Below are positions 5,464-46,858 of a stretch of 57,557 nt of DNA, piece after piece. Where the stretch lies: NCBI GenBank assembly GCA_024637275.1, contig JAGXFS010000063.1, forward strand, positions 1-57,557. Direction: 5' to 3'. A program made the position numbers and the translations under genes. Source of the DNA: Acidimicrobiia bacterium (GTDB taxonomy: Bacteria > Actinomycetota > Acidimicrobiia > Spongiisociales > JAENVV01). The notes under the pieces are model-generated. The model did not search any database, was not told the DNA's origin, and saw only the letters and a program-made list of their open reading frames with translations. How positions within the stretch are numbered: position 1 is the stretch's first letter; every line of letters starts with the position of its first letter.

Positions 5464-5571
5464 ATGTTTGTTCGTGTTCAGGATCTTCCGGTCTTCCAGC
5501 GGCAGCGACTGGCAGTACGTCAGCCACCGTGGGAACGACCGCGTAAGTACCAGCGCCATCGAAAACGATGA
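5464..5571 (+). CDS. possible small basic protein or leader peptide (35 aa, MFVRVQDLPVFQRQRLAVRQPPWERPRKYQRHRKR)
   Basis: AAAGGAG lies 6 nt upstream of the ATG, and the ORF is followed within 6 nt by a 14-bp GC hairpin. I recognise no family. Confidence 0.3.
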   Translation: MFVRVQDLPVFQRQRLAVRQPPWERPRKYQRHRKR

Positions 5572-5576
5572 CCAAC

Positions 5577-5609
5577 CGATGGGGCCGTCCGACCAGGACG
5601 GCCCCATCG
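5577..5609 (+). terminator. strong stem-loop (14-bp perfect stem, 5-nt loop) followed by TTT
   Basis: CGATGGGGCCGTCC-gacca-GGACGGCCCCATCG-TTT. It sits 18 nt upstream of the PPOX start codon. Confidence 0.5.
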
Positions 5610-5627
5610 TTTAACTAGAGTTCCCGC

Positions 5628-6053: not shown

Positions 6054-7453
6054 CGAGTGGCATGACCCCGGACGAATTTCGCAAACACGGCAAAGAACTT
6101 ATTGACTGGGTAGCCGACTATTACGAGCGAGTGGAGTCTCTGCCAGTGACCCCGGACGTCGAGCCGGGTGCCATTCGCGCCATGCTGCCAGAGTTCGCAC
6201 CTGAGCTTCCGGAACCATTCACCGAGGTCATCGCCGACCTTGACCGGGTTGTGATGCCTGGTATCACGCACTGGCAGTCACCCAACTGGTTTGCCTACTT
6301 CCCCGGCGACTCTTCGTTCCCTGCCATCCTCGGCGAACTCGTGTCTGCCGGGTTGGCCCAGCAAGGCATGCTCTGGTCGACCAGCCCGGCAACGACCGAA
6401 ATCGAATCGCACATGATGGATTGGCTCGTCGATCTGCTTGGCCTGCCGCAAGCCTGGAAGACCTCCGGACCAGGCGGCGGTGTCATCCAGATGAGCGCTT
6501 CGGACTCAACTCACACGGCTCTCGTGGTTGCTCGCCAGCGGGCTCAAGGAACAGCCTCCCTCGACGACATCGTGGCGTACGGATCAGCCCAAGCGCATAG
6601 CTCCATCGAAAAGGGAGCCAGGGTGGCTGGATACCGGCACTATCGCCCCATCGAAGTCGACGAACAATTCGCCTTGCGAACGGACCTACTCGAAGCCGCA
6701 ATAGCCGACGACCGGGCCGCCGGCATGCAACCAGCGTTCGTGTGTTCGGCAGTCGGTACCACGGGGACGACGGCAGTCGACCCGGTGCGAGCCATCGGCG
6801 AGATTGCCCGCCGCGAAGGCTTGTGGCATCACGTCGACGCGGCATACGCCGGGTCCGCCATGATTTGCCCGGAGTTCCGACATCATCAGGACGGACTCGA
6901 GCTTGCCGATTCCTATGTGTTCAACCCCCACAAATGGATGTTCGTGAACTTCGACGCCTCAGCGTTCTATGTCGCTGACCGGCGACCCCTCATCGAAACC
7001 CTCAGCATCTTGCCGCCATATCTCCAGGACGCCGCATCTCAATCAGGATCGGTCATCGACTACCGGGACTGGCACGTTCCTTTGGGACGAAGGTTTCGAG
7101 CTCTAAAGCTCTGGTTCACGCTGCGATCGTTTGGGGCAGAAGGCATCCGTTCGAAGATTCGGGAACATGTCGGAGCCGCCCAAGCGCTCGCCGCCCGACT
7201 CGAGGCTGATGAGCGTTTTGAATTGGTCGCACCGACGCCGTTCGCTCTGGTCAGCTTCCGGCACGTGGCGGGAGATGCCGCAACCGATCGATTGGCCGAT
7301 GCGGTGAACCGATCAGGGCGAGCCTATCTGACCGCTTCGAAGCTGCCCGATAGCTCGTCGTTTATCCGCGTCTCGGTGGGACAAACCAACACAACAGCCC
7401 GTCATGTCGAATCACTGGGCGACCTTATTGAGGAAATGTCAGACCCGGCATGA
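6050..7453 (+). CDS. aromatic-L-amino-acid decarboxylase (group II PLP-dependent decarboxylase)
   Basis: Strong resemblance to animal and plant DDC from the N-terminus (EFRKHGKELIDWVADYY, PGITHWQSPNWFAYFP, MMDWL). The PLP-lysine motif NPHKW is present. The start is placed at ATG 6050 (ATGA overlap). Confidence 0.9.
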   Translation: MTSGMTPDEFRKHGKELIDWVADYYERVESLPVTPDVEPGAIRAMLPEFAPELPEPFTEVIADLDRVVMPGITHWQSPNWFAYFPGDSSFPAILGELVSAGLAQQGMLWSTSPATTEIESHMMDWLVDLLGLPQAWKTSGPGGGVIQMSASDSTHTALVVARQRAQGTASLDDIVAYGSAQAHSSIEKGARVAGYRHYRPIEVDEQFALRTDLLEAAIADDRAAGMQPAFVCSAVGTTGTTAVDPVRAIGEIARREGLWHHVDAAYAGSAMICPEFRHHQDGLELADSYVFNPHKWMFVNFDASAFYVADRRPLIETLSILPPYLQDAASQSGSVIDYRDWHVPLGRRFRALKLWFTLRSFGAEGIRSKIREHVGAAQALAARLEADERFELVAPTPFALVSFRHVAGDAATDRLADAVNRSGRAYLTASKLPDSSSFIRVSVGQTNTTARHVESLGDLIEEMSDPA

Positions 7454-7518
7454 CCGACGTCATGCCGGGTCCATCCGGGTGATGCCCACGCGGGCATCAT
7501 GGGTGATGCCCGGAACCG

Positions 7519-9657: not shown

Positions 9658-9737
9658 TTGGGGTAGACGAACTCAAACCTCTGCGATCAGGGCCGATGTA
9701 GACTGATCAGCACAACAGAGATCAAGCTACCTATTTG

Positions 9738-9910
9738 AAGCGCCTGACCCCGTTACAGGGGTGACGAGGAGGAGGATCATCGAAAGTGGCCCCCAGGGGT
9801 CGCGTCGGCGGATGTTCTCCCGGCTGCTCACGGTCGTGACGTACGTGCCAAAACCCGACGGTAACGCCGGGGACAACCGCACGGCGACGTGAGGGAACCT
9901 GCAGGTTCCG
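9738..9910 (+). ncRNA. glmS ribozyme: glmS ribozyme (GlcN6P-dependent self-cleaving riboswitch)
   Basis: It lies directly upstream of glmS. The cleavage-site context A|GCGCC is at 9739|9740, followed by the conserved core blocks GUGACGAGGA (9761-9770), AUCGAA (9779-9784), GGCGGAUG (9807-9814) and CUCCCGGCUG (9817-9826). GACGGUAACGCC and a terminal hairpin GGAACC-UGCA-GGUUCC come next. GGAGGA pairs with UUCUCC as P2. Confidence 0.85.
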
Positions 9911-9947: not shown

Positions 9948-11780
9948 ATGTGCGGAATAGTTGGATATGTCGGCACAAAGCCGGCCCAGTCAATACTCGT
10001 CAACGGACTCGCCCGCCTCGAATATCGCGGTTACGACTCTGCCGGAATCGCCATCATTGATGGTTCGAAGATCGGTGTCACCAAGACCGCCGGTCGGGTC
10101 GCCGATCTCATCTCGTCGATAGCGGCGGACCAGGGTTCGTATACCGGCTCGGTCGGAATCGGGCACACCCGGTGGGCCACCCACGGGGCACCCGTCACGA
10201 AGAATGCCCACCCTCACAGCGACTGCTCGCAGAATGTGGCCGTCGTTCACAACGGCATCATCGAGAATTACATGCAGTTGCGCGACGAACTGATCGCCGC
10301 CGGCCACACCTTCACGTCCGATACCGACACCGAAGTTGTGGCACATCTAGTCGAACAGATGGGCGACGAGCCACTGGAAATCATCGTTCGCAACATCATG
10401 GAAAAGGCCGAAGGCGCCCTCGCCATCGGCGTGGTCCGGGCGTCTGATCCCGATCTGATCGTGGCAGCTCGCCGGGGCAGCCCGCTCGTCATTGGGTTCG
10501 GCGACGGCGAGAGTTTCCTCGCCTCGGATATCCCCGCCATTCTCGAACACACCCGGCGCATCGCCATCGTTGGCGACGACAACGTCGTCTCGCTCACTCC
10601 TGGCGGTGTCTCCATTACCGACCTGGCGGGAAACCCCGTTGAACCGGTAGTTCGTGACATCGAATGGGATCTTGAGTCCGCCGAGCGCGGCGGGTACGAC
10701 GACTTTATGTTGAAGGAGATCTACGAACAGCCGAAAGCGCTGACAGACACCTTGGCTGGCCGCATCGACGATCACTACCGAATCCATTTACCCGAACTCG
10801 ACTTGACCCCTCGCGAAGCTCGCGCCATTGACAAGGTGTTTGTGGTGGCTTGCGGCACCTCCTATCACGCGGGACTCATGGCCAAGTATGCAATCGAGCG
10901 GTGGACCAGGCTCCCGGTTGAGATCGATATCGCCTCGGAGTTTCGCTATCGCGACCCCGTGCTCGACGACCGAACAATGGTGATCGGGATGAGCCAGTCC
11001 GGCGAAACTGCCGATACGTTGGCGGCGATCGAGTACGCCCAGGCCCAGGGTGCCTACGTCGTCGCCACGACGAACGTCGTCGACTCGTCGATGGCCCGGG
11101 TTGCCGACTCCGTCCTGTACACCCGGGCCGGTCCCGAGATCGGCGTCGCATCCACGAAGACTTTCGTGTGTCAGCTGGTCCTCATGCAGATCTTGGCCCT
11201 GTATCTAGCCCAGATCCGAGGGGCCCTCGACGGCGCCACCGTTGAAGTAATGGCCAAGTCGATCCGAGCGCTTCCCGACCAGGTCGAGAAACTGCTGGAA
11301 CGGGCCGACGACATCATGGAGCAGGCCCGCAAGTACACCGACGTCAAGGACGTGTTCTTCCTCGGCCGGGGTGTTTCCTTCCCGATCGCTCTCGAAGGTG
11401 CACTCAAGCTGAAGGAAATCGCCTACGTCCGCGCCGAGGGATATCCGGCCGGGGAAATGAAGCACGGGCCGATTGCCCTCATCGAGAAGGGTGTCCTGGT
11501 CGTTGGGGTGGCCACGAAGAGCCACCTCCATGCCAAAACTCTTTCGAATATGGAAGAGATGAAGGCCCGGGCGGCCACACTCTTCATGGTGCTGACCGAA
11601 GGTGACACCGAGGGTCAGCGCTTGGCCGACGACGTTGCCTGGGTCCCGCCGGCTCCCGAGCTCATCGCTCCGGTGACCGCCGTTATCCCACTGCAGCTCT
11701 TTGCCTACGCGATATCGAAGGCCAAAGGACTTGACGTCGACAAGCCGCGCAACCTGGCAAAAACCGTAACGGTCGAATAA
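9948..11780 (+). CDS. glmS: glutamine--fructose-6-phosphate aminotransferase (isomerizing)
   Basis: 610 aa. The N-terminal nucleophile motif MCGIVGY is present, followed by a GATase-2 domain, two SIS domains, and the C-terminus KPRNLAKTVTVE. AAGGAG lies upstream of the start. Confidence 0.97.
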   Translation: MCGIVGYVGTKPAQSILVNGLARLEYRGYDSAGIAIIDGSKIGVTKTAGRVADLISSIAADQGSYTGSVGIGHTRWATHGAPVTKNAHPHSDCSQNVAVVHNGIIENYMQLRDELIAAGHTFTSDTDTEVVAHLVEQMGDEPLEIIVRNIMEKAEGALAIGVVRASDPDLIVAARRGSPLVIGFGDGESFLASDIPAILEHTRRIAIVGDDNVVSLTPGGVSITDLAGNPVEPVVRDIEWDLESAERGGYDDFMLKEIYEQPKALTDTLAGRIDDHYRIHLPELDLTPREARAIDKVFVVACGTSYHAGLMAKYAIERWTRLPVEIDIASEFRYRDPVLDDRTMVIGMSQSGETADTLAAIEYAQAQGAYVVATTNVVDSSMARVADSVLYTRAGPEIGVASTKTFVCQLVLMQILALYLAQIRGALDGATVEVMAKSIRALPDQVEKLLERADDIMEQARKYTDVKDVFFLGRGVSFPIALEGALKLKEIAYVRAEGYPAGEMKHGPIALIEKGVLVVGVATKSHLHAKTLSNMEEMKARAATLFMVLTEGDTEGQRLADDVAWVPPAPELIAPVTAVIPLQLFAYAISKAKGLDVDKPRNLAKTVTVE

Positions 11781-13809: not shown

Positions 13810-14460
13810 ATGAATGGGCAGGTACGCGCACACATCTACAAGCACTTCCGCGACCAAGCCGCCGCACCATCGACCGGCGACATCGCCAGCTCCCTGGGAA
13901 GGTCACACGAGGAGGTCACCGTCGCCCTTGACGAGTTGGCCGCGTCACATGCCATCGTCCTTCGGCCAGGAACTCACGACATCTGGATGGCCCATCCGTT
14001 TTCGGGCATCCCCACGGACTACACCGCAACCGTCGGCGGTAACACCTGGTACGCCAACTGCGGGTGGGACTCCATCGCCATTCTGGCGTTGCTAGGCGAT
14101 GGAACGTTCGCATCGAAGGACCCGCTAACGGACACCACCAACGAATGGACAGTGAATGACGGAGTAGTCACGCCAGCCGGAGTCGTGCACTTCCTGGTAC
14201 CGGCCCGCCAGTTCTGGGACGACATCGGGTACACCTGAAGCAATATTCTCGCCTTCCGGTCGGAAGGTGACGTACTCAGCTGGACCCGTTCACACGGCAT
14301 CGCAGTCGGCGCGATCGTTGATATGCAAACCGTTCTTCAGCTCGGCCACGACTGGTACTCGGGTCGCTTTGATCCGGCCTGGGAACGCCCGGGAGCCGAC
14401 GATATCGTCTCAATGTTCGCTGCGCTTGGCCTAACCGGCCCGTTCTGGTCGCTGAGCTAG
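13810..14460 (+). CDS. MerB-family (alkylmercury-lyase-like) protein with an in-frame UGA at codon 143; candidate selenocysteine, or alternatively a nonsense-disrupted pseudogene
   Basis: The 142-aa ORF ends at TGA 14236-14238, but the same frame continues for 73 codons to TAG 14458-14460. Both parts align to MerB. WYANCGWDSIAI matches LYAWCALDTLIF (Cys96/Asp99). PAG-x18-[TGA]-S-NILAFRS...WTRSHG matches PAG-x18-C159-C160-HVHFFAS...WASKHQG. A SECIS-like hairpin follows the TGA. Confidence 0.65.
14249..14270 (+). promoter_or_regulatory. SECIS-like RNA hairpin downstream of the in-frame UGA
   Basis: UCGCCUUCC-GGUC-GGAAGGUGA forms a 9-bp stem (one G.U) with loop GGUC. It begins 10-11 nt after UGA 14236-14238. 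Confidence 0.55.
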
Positions 14461-29958: not shown

Positions 29959-29984
29959 GTAGTGACATCGGTTTAGCCATAGAA

Positions 29985-30012
29985 AAAGGCCCGGGCATCG
30001 CCCGGGCCTTTC
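29985..30012. terminator. bidirectional intrinsic terminator between convergent argS and the repeat-protein gene
   Basis: AAAAAGGCCCGGGC-atc-GCCCGGGCCTTTC forms a 9-bp GC stem flanked by an A-tract and a T-tract. Confidence 0.75.
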
Positions 30013-30030
30013 AATTCGTTTCAGGCAGAA

Positions 30031-43890: not shown

Positions 43891-45306
43891 CTAGGGCGCT
43901 GGGTGCCGGGTGAGGTCGGCAAACAGCGTGTACTCAGGGAGAAAATTCATCTCTATTCGTCCAGTCGCGCCGGCACGGTGCTTGGCGACGATGACCTCGG
44001 CCAGTCCCTTGCTCTCGATCGCCTCAGGGTTGTAGTACTCATCGCGGTAAATGAACATCACGATGTCAGCGTCCTGCTCGATCGCGCCTGACTCACGGAG
44101 GTCGCCGAGGCGGGGGCGCTTGTCCTCACGAGCTTCTAGCCCACGGTTGAGCTGAGAGACGGCCAACACGGGGCATTCCAGCTCGCGCGCCAGGTTCTTG
44201 AGGTTACGGCTGATCTCGGCGATCTCTTGCTGGCGGTTCTCACGATTACGACCCTGCATGAGCTGGAGGTAGTCGAGCACCACCAGATCCAGTCGCCCTT
44301 TCTGACGCTTGAGCCGGCGACATTTGGCTCGCACGTCCGTAACGGTCGTGTACGAACTGTCATCCACAAAGATGGGCGCCGGATAGAGGCGACTCGCCGC
44401 GTTCGTGACCTTCTGCCACATCTCAACAGACAGCTGACCGGCTCGTAGCTTCATGGAATCGACCCGGCCCATTGAGCAGAGGATTCTTTGGATGATCTCG
44501 TCCTTGCCCATCTCCAAGGAGAACATGGCAACGACCCCGCCGTTGACGGCCACGTTGGTAGCAATGTTCAGCGCGATCGCACTCTTACCCATGGCGGGTC
44601 GAGCGGCAATGACGATCAGATTGGCAGGTTGGAAGCCGGCCAACATGCCGTCGAGGTCTCGGAAACCGGTCGAGAGACCGGTGATCTGGCCGGCGTTGGC
44701 TTCGAGGGCCTCGATCTGCTCGAGGGCTGGCTTGAGCATCGTGGACAGCTCGAGCAGCCCGTCGCCGACCCGACGTTCGGCAACACCCAGCACCGTTTGT
44801 TCGGCGTTATCGATGACGTAGTCGAGTTCCTCATCCGTTTGGTGGGCAAGGTTGGTGATCTCGCCACCCGCTCGAATCAGGCTCCTCCGCAGGGCACTGT
44901 CCTCGACGATATCGGCGTAATAGTCGACCCGCGATGCCACCGGGACCGCGTTCTGCAGTCGAGCAATAAAGGCCGGGCCGCCAATCTTGTCCAGTTCGTC
45001 TTTGCGGCGAAGCTGATCGGTAACGGTGACGGCATCGATCGGCTGGCTCGTGTTGTACAACTCGACCATGGCCTCGTAGATGGCCTGGTAGGCAGGAACA
45101 TAGAAGTCGTACGGCGACAGACGGTCGATGACCGTATTGGCCGCGTCCGACGAGAGCAACATGGCACCGAGTACCGACTCTTCGGCATCGGCATTGTGAG
45201 GTGGGACTCGGACGCCGCCGGGGCGTGCTCCGCCGCGCGGTTGAAAATCCGGCGCCGGCGGCGCGTACGAGTCATCGGGTGGCTCGTGTGCGCCGCCGTC
45301 CGCCAT
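43891..45306 (-). CDS. dnaB: replicative DNA helicase
   Basis: 471 aa. The N-terminal domain (PPHNADAEESVLGAMLL), Walker A (ARPAMGKSA), Walker B (LVVLDYLQLM) and SQLNR are present. There is no intein insertion. Confidence 0.95.
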   Translation of the reverse strand: MADGGAHEPPDDSYAPPAPDFQPRGGARPGGVRVPPHNADAEESVLGAMLLSSDAANTVIDRLSPYDFYVPAYQAIYEAMVELYNTSQPIDAVTVTDQLRRKDELDKIGGPAFIARLQNAVPVASRVDYYADIVEDSALRRSLIRAGGEITNLAHQTDEELDYVIDNAEQTVLGVAERRVGDGLLELSTMLKPALEQIEALEANAGQITGLSTGFRDLDGMLAGFQPANLIVIAARPAMGKSAIALNIATNVAVNGGVVAMFSLEMGKDEIIQRILCSMGRVDSMKLRAGQLSVEMWQKVTNAASRLYPAPIFVDDSSYTTVTDVRAKCRRLKRQKGRLDLVVLDYLQLMQGRNRENRQQEIAEISRNLKNLARELECPVLAVSQLNRGLEAREDKRPRLGDLRESGAIEQDADIVMFIYRDEYYNPEAIESKGLAEVIVAKHRAGATGRIEMNFLPEYTLFADLTRHPAP

Positions 45307-45312
45307 TACGGC

Positions 45313-45759
45313 CTACGCCGGGATAACGTCGAGGATCAACACAAACTGCACGTCCTTGTGCAGTTTGATTGGCACTTCATGGAGTCCGATGCTCTTGATC
45401 GGTTTGTCGAGGCTGATCGCATGACGATCCAGTGCCACGCCGGAGAACTTCTGCACGCCTTCAACGATGTCGCTGACACCGATCGAACCAAACAACTTGC
45501 CTTCGTCGCCAGCCTGGGCACCGATCACAATGCGGGTTCCGACCAACGATGAAGCAATCGCTTCGGCTTCTTGATGGGCCTTGCGAGACGATTCGTCGCG
45601 GGCTTCTTTCAAAGCCGTTGCGTGCTTGAGCGCTCCGCCGGTCGCCTTGATGGCAACGTGGCGCGGAAGCAAGTAGTTGCGCGCATATCCGTCGGCGACG
45701 TCGACGATATCGCCTTCGACTCCGAGACCATCTACTTCTGCTGTCAGTATCAGCTTCAT
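45313..45759 (-). CDS. rplI: 50S ribosomal protein L9
   Basis: [33 protein letters not shown] is the canonical bL9 N-terminus. Confidence 0.95.
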   Translation of the reverse strand: MKLILTAEVDGLGVEGDIVDVADGYARNYLLPRHVAIKATGGALKHATALKEARDESSRKAHQEAEAIASSLVGTRIVIGAQAGDEGKLFGSIGVSDIVEGVQKFSGVALDRHAISLDKPIKSIGLHEVPIKLHKDVQFVLILDVIPA

Positions 45760-46013
45760 TAGCGGTTGATGTACGGAAGTAGGGCCATCTCACGAGCGTT
45801 CTTGATGGCCATGGCCACCTCACGCTGGTGTCGGGCGCAGTTCCCGGTCACGCGGCGAGCGCGGATCTTGGAACGGTCGGATACGTAACGACGCAGCACC
45901 GAGACTTCTTTGTAGTCAATGGTGGCTCGCTTGTCCGTGCAGAACGCACAGACCTTTTTCTTCATTTTTCGGCCGGAATCATTCCGACGCTTTTTTCGTG
46001 GCTGCTGAGCCAT
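45759..46013 (-). CDS. rpsR: 30S ribosomal protein S18
   Basis: CAFCTDK...IDYK....[42 protein letters not shown]. Confidence 0.95.
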
Positions 46014-46037
46014 GTGTGTCTCCTAAATTCTTGAGCG

Positions 46038-46490
46038 CTAGAACGGCGCTTCGTCTGGTCCGAAATCTTCTCGGGCTACCGGAGCGGCTGGAAGGCCTCC
46101 GGCATCCGATCCTCCGCCAAAGTCGCCGCCGCCCGTTCTGGCTGCTTTGGTGACCGAGGCCGATGCCCAGCGAAGGCTGGGGCCGATTTCGTCAATGCGG
46201 AGCTCAACAACTGACCGCTTGTCGCCCTCGGGCGTTTCCCAGCTGCGCTGCTCGAGGCTACCGGTCACGATGACCCGGGTCCCCTTGGTGAGTGACTCCG
46301 AGGCGTGCTCGGCGGCTTCGCGCCACAGGGTTCCGCCGAAGTACGACGTTTCTTCTTGCCATTCGTTCTGCTGGTCGCGCCAGCGGCGATTCACGGCGAT
46401 ACGAATCTTGGCCATGGCGATTCCCGACTGCGTGAAGCGCAGTTCGGGGTCTTCAACCAGGTTGCCGATAACTGTTACGGTGTTCGTCAT
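46038..46490 (-). CDS. ssb: single-stranded DNA-binding protein
   Basis: The start is placed at ATG 46490 (MTNTVTVIGNLVEDPELRFT). It has an OB fold, a Gly-rich tail and an acidic tip (DFGPDEAPF). Confidence 0.93.
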   Translation of the reverse strand: MTNTVTVIGNLVEDPELRFTQSGIAMAKIRIAVNRRWRDQQNEWQEETSYFGGTLWREAAEHASESLTKGTRVIVTGSLEQRSWETPEGDKRSVVELRIDEIGPSLRWASASVTKAARTGGGDFGGGSDAGGLPAAPVAREDFGPDEAPF

Positions 46491-46567
46491 TGATCCCTCT
46501 CCTGGGTCGTCTCGTTCGTCACATCCCGCCGTTACTTGAAGTATCCGGGTCGGATGTGACAAAAAGG

Positions 46568-46858
46568 TCAGTCTTCTAGTCGGATGACCTTGTGCCGGAT
46601 GACCGCGTCAGATAGGCGAAGGGCCCGGTCGAGTTCATCGATCGCCACCGTGTTGTCGGTTTTGAACGTCACCAGCGAGTAATAGCCCTCGTTCATGTGA
46701 TTGATCTCGTAGGCAAAGCGACGCTTGCCCCAAAAGTCCTGTTCAGATACCTCAGCGCCTCGAGCTTCGAGCAAGGCTGCGATCTCTTTGACCTTGCCTT
46801 GCGCGTCGGGCTCTTGGAGGTCAGGACGATGAATCGTCATGACTTCATAGTTATTCAA
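46568..46858 (-). CDS. rpsF: 30S ribosomal protein S6
   Basis: TTG start, 6 nt after AGGAGG. NNYEVMTIHRPDL aligns to the bS6 N-terminus (RHYEIVFMVHPD). Confidence 0.92.
   Translation of the reverse strand: MNNYEVMTIHRPDLQEPDAQGKVKEIAALLEARGAEVSEQDFWGKRRFAYEINHMNEGYYSLVTFKTDNTVAIDELDRALRLSDAVIRHKVIRLED

Follow-up and report, generated by a model that had tools for sequence, protein, structure and literature searches.

Positions 13810 to 14460 on the forward strand of contig JAGXFS010000063.1 (assembly GCA_024637275.1, an Acidimicrobiia bacterium) hold a gene of the MerB (alkylmercury lyase, PF03243) superfamily whose reading frame contains a UGA codon. The whole stretch of 57,557 nucleotides that was analysed is referred to here as the window. 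A first-pass annotation of this DNA had stated that the annotated-looking open reading frame (ORF) closes at TGA 14236-14238 and that the same frame then stays open for 73 further codons to a TAG; both statements are borne out on the sequence. The UGA, codon 143, is predicted to encode selenocysteine (Sec), and it is followed by a hairpin resembling a bacterial selenocysteine insertion sequence (SECIS). The features of the locus are as follows.

13810..14460, + strand: MerB-superfamily gene of 216 codons plus stop, with ATG at 13810, in-frame UGA at codon 143 and TAG at 14458-14460; product of about 24 kDa.
13810..14238, + strand: annotated-looking ORF of 142 codons, closing at TGA 14236-14238.
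13810..13998, + strand: N-terminal region of about 63 residues with three helices, winged-helix-like according to model secondary structure and weak structural matches.
13999..14358, + strand: Pfam MerB (PF03243) domain, residues 64-183, running across the UGA (E 1.3e-20, 74.1 bits against a cut-off of 27).
14059..14061, + strand: TGC, Cys84, aligned by HMMER with MerB Cys96, the first metal ligand.
14068..14070, + strand: GAC, Asp87, aligned by HMMER with MerB Asp99, the proton donor.
14236..14238, + strand: in-frame UGA, predicted selenocysteine 143, placed at MerB Cys159, the second metal ligand, by HMMER alignment and homologue codons.
14239..14457, + strand: 73-codon stretch that follows the UGA, assigned to the C-terminal third of the MerB fold by frame, selection and structural alignments.
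14249..14270, + strand: SECIS-like hairpin, stem 14249-14257 / 14262-14270, apical loop GGUC at 14258-14261.
14251-14257 / 14262-14268, + strand: family-conserved 7-bp core of the hairpin, overlapping the codons for A-F-R-S-E-G.

The window protein is a member of the MerB superfamily. When the UGA is read as a residue, the Pfam match forms one stretch that passes through codon 143, and phmmer comparison with MerB and MerB2 of the Protein Data Bank (PDB) places Cys84 on Cys96, Asp87 on Asp99 and codon 143 on Cys159. A colinear MerB alignment had earlier been drawn by eye, with the TGA in the column of the second catalytic cysteine; it was reproduced by HMMER, the profile alignment put the TGA at Cys159, and the structure model agrees. 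Cys84 is conserved in 80 of 81 family sequences, Asp87 in all 81 and UGA143 in 79. Further conserved positions lie after the UGA, at AFRSE, W158, G167, W182-Y183, R186 and F212-W213.

An AlphaFold2 model of P0022, a full-length homologue 42% identical to the window protein, has a predicted local distance difference test (pLDDT) value of 90.1 and a predicted template modelling score (pTM) of 0.88. Its only significant structural matches in the PDB were 11 chains of MerB or MerB2 (E 1.5e-9 to 2.8e-6, template modelling (TM) scores 0.59-0.71, about 190 aligned columns). These alignments cover the part that follows the UGA, and the 73 downstream residues therefore belong to the fold. The N-terminal region of the same model gave weak structural matches to winged helix-turn-helix metalloregulators, and some homologues have precomputed GntR, MarR or HTH_20 Pfam matches.

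A protein search over 5.8 billion proteins returned 484 relatives. The best 120 of these were nearly all 142-145 residues long and covered only 64-66% of the query, and had therefore been cut at the same codon. DNA was fetched for 84 loci in genomes and metagenome-assembled genomes, and the evaluable set comprised 82 sequences (81 fetched loci and the window). The codon in the UGA column is TGA in 80 of the 82, TGC in one (locus L061) and TGG in one (L003). In the window and all 81 fetched loci the C-terminal part continues the frame without any gap and ends near a conserved FWSL motif; in the 80 TGA forms this extension is 70-75 codons long. The carriers span at least eight phyla: Acidimicrobiia, Acidobacteriota, Gemmatimonadota, Thermoleophilia, NC10/Methylomirabilota, Chloroflexota, Verrucomicrobiota (Verrucomicrobiales) and Proteobacteria, with Desulfatibacillum and Geomonas among the Proteobacteria. 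The nearest fetched relative of the window gene is an Acidimicrobiia locus (L005) with 87% amino-acid identity.

Pairwise ratios of nonsynonymous to synonymous substitution rates (dN/dS) ranged from 0.04 to 0.35 over the 72 codons downstream and from 0.11 to 0.37 upstream of the UGA; the codons after the UGA are under purifying selection, the same as those before it. The first-pass annotation had proposed to look among relatives for genes ending at the TGA and for neutral evolution or frameshifts beyond it. No orthologue ends there, and the frame is kept throughout. ATG, GTG or TTG occurs within eight codons after the TGA in only 13 of 79 loci, so that no restart is conserved, and the residues directly after the TGA are conserved among homologues. 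L061, the orthologue with Cys, is 80% identical to L064, which has TGA, and its ORF is uninterrupted. When the C-terminal 73 residues served as query in an exhaustive HMMER search, they recovered many orphan ORFs of 45-95 residues, which are the mis-called C-terminal piece, together with about 15 full-length relatives of 24-37% identity, most of which have Cys in the UGA column. The predicted Sec/Cys pairing across homologues is the classical one for this type of substitution. A word-index search with the same 73 residues, less informative than the exhaustive one, found seven short fragments only. Three long proteins, P0124 (943 residues), P0144 (1258) and P0160 (1087), contained seven or eight separate stretches matching the C-terminal query; P0124 has no meaningful Pfam domain, and the three were therefore dropped as spurious, probably compositional, matches.

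The hairpin downstream of the UGA had been described in the first-pass annotation as 9 bp long with a GGUC loop and one G.U pair, beginning just after the TGA. All of this is borne out by the sequence and by RNAfold prediction: the single G.U pair is 14251:14268, the stem begins 10 nt after the TGA and the loop 19 nt after it. The loop of the E. coli fdhF element, which we take to be AGGUCU, resembles the GGUC loop found here. Published constraints for bacterial SECIS (bSECIS) elements are a loop of 3-9 nt with G in one of its first two positions followed by G or U, a stem of 4-16 bp, a UGA-to-loop distance of 16-37 nt and a minimum free energy at or below -7.5 kcal/mol (PMC13188914). The hairpin agrees with every one of them, with a 4-nt loop, a 9-bp stem of which 7 bp are conserved, a spacing of 19 nt and a minimum free energy of about -16 kcal/mol. 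It is like the E. coli fdhF-type SECIS and the bSECISearch consensus in being an in-ORF stem-loop just 3' of the UGA, with a small loop in which an early G is followed by G or U, and in its spacing. It differs from the fdhF type in that the stem in the window family is short and perfect, closed by the 4-nt GGUC loop and lacking a bulged U. The element hardly varies between phyla, since the same nucleotides encode the conserved peptide A/G-F-R-S-E.

In an ungapped alignment of 81 sequences in codon register, which takes in 48 nt from the TGA, the core TTCCGGTCGGA hardly changes; the GGUC loop is conserved, as is the 7-bp stem formed by columns 16-22 and 27-33. Paired cells amount to 80.8% in the true register, and sliding the register never brings them above 60.5%. 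Covariation scores 0.207, whereas slid registers reach no more than 0.095 and shuffles give 0.128 +/- 0.008; none of 500 shuffles came up to 0.207. The pair 17:32 changes in a compensatory manner, being C-G in 46 sequences, G-C in 17 and U-A in two, and the swap is seen in the protein as the reciprocal A-FRSE-G and G-FRSE-A. Synonymous choice is also restricted: within the hairpin the Arg codon is CGG at 77 of 78 loci, against a background of 33%, and the Ser codon is TCG at all 77, against one of 40%, a comparison weakened by P values that treat the sequences as independent. In the Cys forms for which DNA was available (L061, L129, L131 and L132) the hairpin is absent in all four, two of which read TTCCGCTCGGAC, breaking loop and stem. 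The co-occurrence of hairpin and TGA that the first-pass annotation had suggested examining is thus seen in essentially all TGA forms, with covariation. Among 112 mechanical candidates for other read-through TGAs in the window, only the TGA at 14236 had both coding-like flanks and a SECIS-like hairpin.

A Sec-containing relative of MerB has been described before. SaoL (NF040728) is a MerB-like organometallic lyase with Sec (Haft and Gwadz, 2022, bioRxiv 10.1101/2022.07.06.499078) and two selenoproteome reviews (PMC9312934; PMC13188914) list no other MerB-like protein; Sec at this MerB-like site is therefore not new in principle. The window protein shares with SaoL the PF03243 superfamily, an in-frame UGA taken as a stop by gene callers, the alignment of the UGA-encoded residue with MerB Cys159, the equivalents of Cys96 and Asp99, and a homologous C-terminal extension after the UGA. 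It differs in several respects. The window protein has no match to NF040728 at E <= 1, and the scores of its relatives, 19-35 bits, lie below the cut-off of 140. Around the UGA the window protein reads T-U-S and the family T-U-[A/G/S/R], whereas SaoL has a C-U dipeptide, and the UGA lies 73 residues from the C-terminus in the window protein but about 50 in SaoL. The nine-gene SAO neighbourhood (ABC importer, efflux pump, 8Fe-9S proteins) is not present at the window gene. SaoL is carried by Clostridia, spirochaetes and deltaproteobacterial anaerobes, unlike the window family, which is found mainly in Acidimicrobiia, Acidobacteriota, Gemmatimonadota, Thermoleophilia, NC10 and Chloroflexota. The outcome of the comparisons with the SaoL model, motif and neighbourhood indicates a separate branch of the MerB superfamily. 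With MerB and MerB2 (EC 4.99.1.2; PDB 3F0O, 3F0P, 5C17) the window protein shares the fold and the Cys96, Asp99 and Cys159 columns, but identity is 18-20%, Sec is predicted in place of Cys159, Cys160 is lacking, and the gene is chromosomal and stand-alone, outside any merA/R/T/P context. No description of this MerB-like clade was found in the literature and curated models searched. It is apparently a distinct, undescribed Sec-containing family of the MerB superfamily, other than SaoL.

About 30 metagenome loci (L004, L085-L116 and L121), 51-97% identical to the database protein P0027, have TGA in both the Cys96 and the Cys159 columns; in L004 the two codons are at 549-551 and 738-740 of that locus. 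At the homologous C-terminus these genes close with a normal stop codon, frequently TGA, and each in-frame TGA has its own hairpin. The first TGA is followed by a long stem of -20 to -28 kcal/mol, for which z = -4.2 in L004, and the subgroups differ in it by compensatory changes. The corresponding database proteins are cut at the first TGA or called under genetic code 4 with W. This sub-clade is a candidate double-selenocysteine MerB-like enzyme.

A number of observations weigh against Sec at codon 143 or against a MerB-like role for the protein. Taken by itself, the window hairpin is not exceptionally stable: in a 60-nt fold z = -1.0, with 29 of 200 shuffles folding as well, and an equally good hairpin within the bSECIS constraints follows 17 of the 1,786 TGA triplets in the window (about 1%). 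The hairpin alone is thus within chance in the window, and its significance rests on the comparative data. Rfam, whose coverage of bacterial SECIS elements is poor, gave no SECIS family for the window at the gathering threshold or for 14150-14350 in a permissive scan. The machinery for Sec decoding was also missing from the DNA at hand. ARAGORN detected no tRNA-Sec in the window or the first 84 loci scanned, Pfam found no selA, selB or selD among the ORFs of the 57.6-kb window, and tblastn with the E. coli proteins found no SelA, SelB or SelD in 842 kb comprising the window and the flanks of the fetched loci. The hairpin persists in two TGG forms: L003 (4436-4470) has six of the seven core pairs, and L130 (gene 255-950, TGG at codon 144) has a perfect 9-bp stem with the GGUC loop. 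Such forms may reflect a recent UGA-to-UGG mutation, a sequencing error or Sec at a sense codon, for which there is precedent (PMC10778597). As to function, the window protein falls below the cut-offs of the curated MerB equivalogs NF009710 (25.4 bits against 193) and NF033555 (17.1 against 200), and homology is the sole basis on which a MerB-like enzymatic activity is suggested.

Some minor observations belong to these searches. Strong hairpins with stems of 9-14 bp at or after gene ends in the window (5569-5620, 7429-7500 and 29963-30023) resemble intrinsic terminators, and such hairpins account for several of the 17 TGA triplets with a comparably good hairpin. The permissive Rfam scan gave a match to RF01843 (15.6 bits, E 0.63) that is ascribed to chance. 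A GTPase at the edge of L034 was considered as a lead to SelB, and its N-terminus was recognised, by motif alone, as LepA/EF4-like. In L133, a third form with TGG, both the hairpin and the first Cys are missing. Within Acidimicrobiia, every one of the 84 complete genomes of the order Actinomarinales is reported to contain the full Sec machinery (bioRxiv 10.64898/2026.04.03.716425); the source organism of the window is presumably Sec-competent.

A recoding signal, selection on one uninterrupted protein, the MerB fold and the match of active-site residues are all observed, and we place the probability that UGA143 is decoded as Sec within a single MerB-fold protein at roughly 0.87. The UGA might instead be recoded with the help of the hairpin while the inserted residue is not Sec, being Cys delivered by a tRNA(Sec)-like/SelB-like system, or Trp or Cys arising from near-cognate read-through. 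The failure to see Sec machinery in the window and scanned flanks, the tolerance of Cys at this position in homologues, the hairpin-bearing TGG (Trp) forms L003 and L130 and the flexibility of SECIS-directed decoding (PMC10778597) would all accord with this. We nevertheless consider it improbable: the element fits the SelB-type bSECIS consensus in loop and spacing, a Cys product should favour TGC or TGT and yet just one of the 82 close homologues has TGC, the site would not survive Trp in place of a metal ligand, and Sec is documented at the same position in SaoL. It is very improbable, in our judgement, that the TGA is a true stop, yielding either a 142-residue product or a split MerB made of polypeptides of 142 and about 70 residues. 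Standard gene callers do give a 142-145-residue protein, often with a separate downstream ORF of 45-95 residues, and termination always competes with Sec insertion; but a 142-residue product would be without the second metal ligand and one third of the fold, the gapless shared frame, the scarcity of nearby start codons and the conservation of the residues immediately after the TGA argue for translation through it, and the Cys orthologue is a single continuous ORF.

The first-pass annotation had set local recoding against a recent Cys-to-stop mutation, TGC or TGT to TGA, in a decaying MerB-like gene. One base change would suffice for the latter, and no mer operon surrounds the gene, but the same TGA recurs across at least eight phyla, the codons before and after it are under purifying selection, and the RNA hairpin is conserved along with it. 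The comparative data, in which neither neutral dN/dS nor downstream frameshifts were seen, refute a pseudogene and leave that explanation next to no probability; recoding is supported by the TGA of the homologues, by selection and by the hairpin. Hardly any credence is due either to UGA as a sense codon under genetic code 4 or 25. Some database proteins of the family (P0019, P0027) are called with W at this position, but the W calls examined correspond to TGA in the DNA, in genes that close at TGA at the homologous C-terminus. As noted earlier for this DNA, other genes of the window use TGA as a normal stop; it terminates 29 of the 55 long ORFs, which excludes codes 4 and 25 there.

If UGA143 is decoded as Sec, the hairpin at 14249-14270 would recruit SelB with Sec-tRNA(Sec) while the ribosome sits on the UGA, and translation would then run on through the 73 codons beyond it. 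Sec143 would replace the MerB metal ligand Cys159, beside Cys84 and Asp87. By analogy with MerB, the Cys84 thiolate and the Sec143 selenolate may bind the soft metal centre of an organometallic substrate, with Asp87 protonating the leaving carbon and so breaking the carbon-metal bond. The selenolate, being more acidic and more nucleophilic, may speed the attack, and would also be expected to grip Hg(II) more tightly. Among chemical mimics of MerB, selones cleave Hg-C bonds faster than thiones (PMC11639659), and for this reason a selenolate is expected to speed Hg-C chemistry. Candidate substrates include methylmercury, other organomercurials or another organometal.

Tentatively, and at somewhat less than even odds, we suggest that this large, phylum-spanning selenoprotein family is a third branch of the MerB superfamily, beside MerB and SaoL, in which selenium would ligate the metal directly; that both ligands of a sister sub-clade are encoded by UGA, each with its own SECIS; and that a few members may decode Sec at UGG. 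Together with SaoL, the family suggests that Sec has been recruited to the MerB metal site more than once. One selenolate at that site, or two in the sister clade, would constitute a natural experiment on Se-assisted cleavage of carbon-metal bonds. Should the substrates be organomercurials, abundant bacteria of soil, sediment and water would have a Se-dependent demethylation route that does not rely on mer operons; were the substrate methylmercury, the family would matter for how mercury cycles in the environment apart from those operons. A selenoprotein is also added to phyla rarely discussed in selenoproteome surveys, namely Acidimicrobiia, Acidobacteriota, Gemmatimonadota, Thermoleophilia and NC10, and this spread is in tension with the view that bacterial selenoproteins serve mainly anaerobic metabolism.

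There are consequences for annotation as well, on a scale of hundreds of protein clusters and 215 species-level genomes. All family entries examined in databases are cut at the UGA or mistranslated with W. The member from the cultured Geomonas sp. RF6 is in RefSeq as a 145-residue "alkylmercury lyase family protein" (WP_230997545.1), and its 73-codon C-terminal part is an unannotated gap (L001 3439-3657; CP087999), as it is at L002 3439-3657; many metagenome pipelines call this part as an orphan ORF of 45-95 residues. In Geomonas sp. RF6 the locus lies near 1,804,311 of CP087999, and the predicted Sec peptide would include IAFT-U-ANIAAFR. Other complete or near-complete genomes with the gene are NC10 OY970067.1, Vicinamibacteria OZ246946.1 and Longimicrobiales OX639991.1, OX638356.1 and OZ242028.1; the Cys form L061 belongs to JBGTNX01 and the TGG form L003 to CAZFAF01, both metagenome-assembled genomes. 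The availability of Geomonas sp. RF6 as a cultured carrier makes direct tests feasible.

The window gene is stand-alone, without mer or SAO partners nearby. Its neighbours encode a universal stress protein (Usp), an OmpR-type regulator, a histidine kinase and RNase II. The absence of nearby mer genes stated in the first-pass annotation held: neither merA, merR nor merT/P was found among the Pfam-scanned ORFs of the window, and none was recurrent near the 81 loci. When 450 flanking ORFs from these loci were clustered, no family occurred in more than 10 loci, and the clustering yielded only generic ABC exporters (10 loci) and synteny among close relatives. A block encoding ribosomal protein S6, single-stranded DNA-binding protein (SSB), ribosomal protein L9 and DnaB lies at 43891-46858 on the reverse strand, and argS and glmS are found elsewhere in the window; these genes mark the contig as core chromosome rather than a mobile element, which fits a gene outside any mer transposon. 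A glmS ribozyme/riboswitch (RF00234; 76.7 bits, E 6.7e-16) at 9728-9893 on the forward strand stands directly 5' of glmS at 9948-11780, which has GATase and SIS domains, an arrangement that is the usual one and was to be expected.

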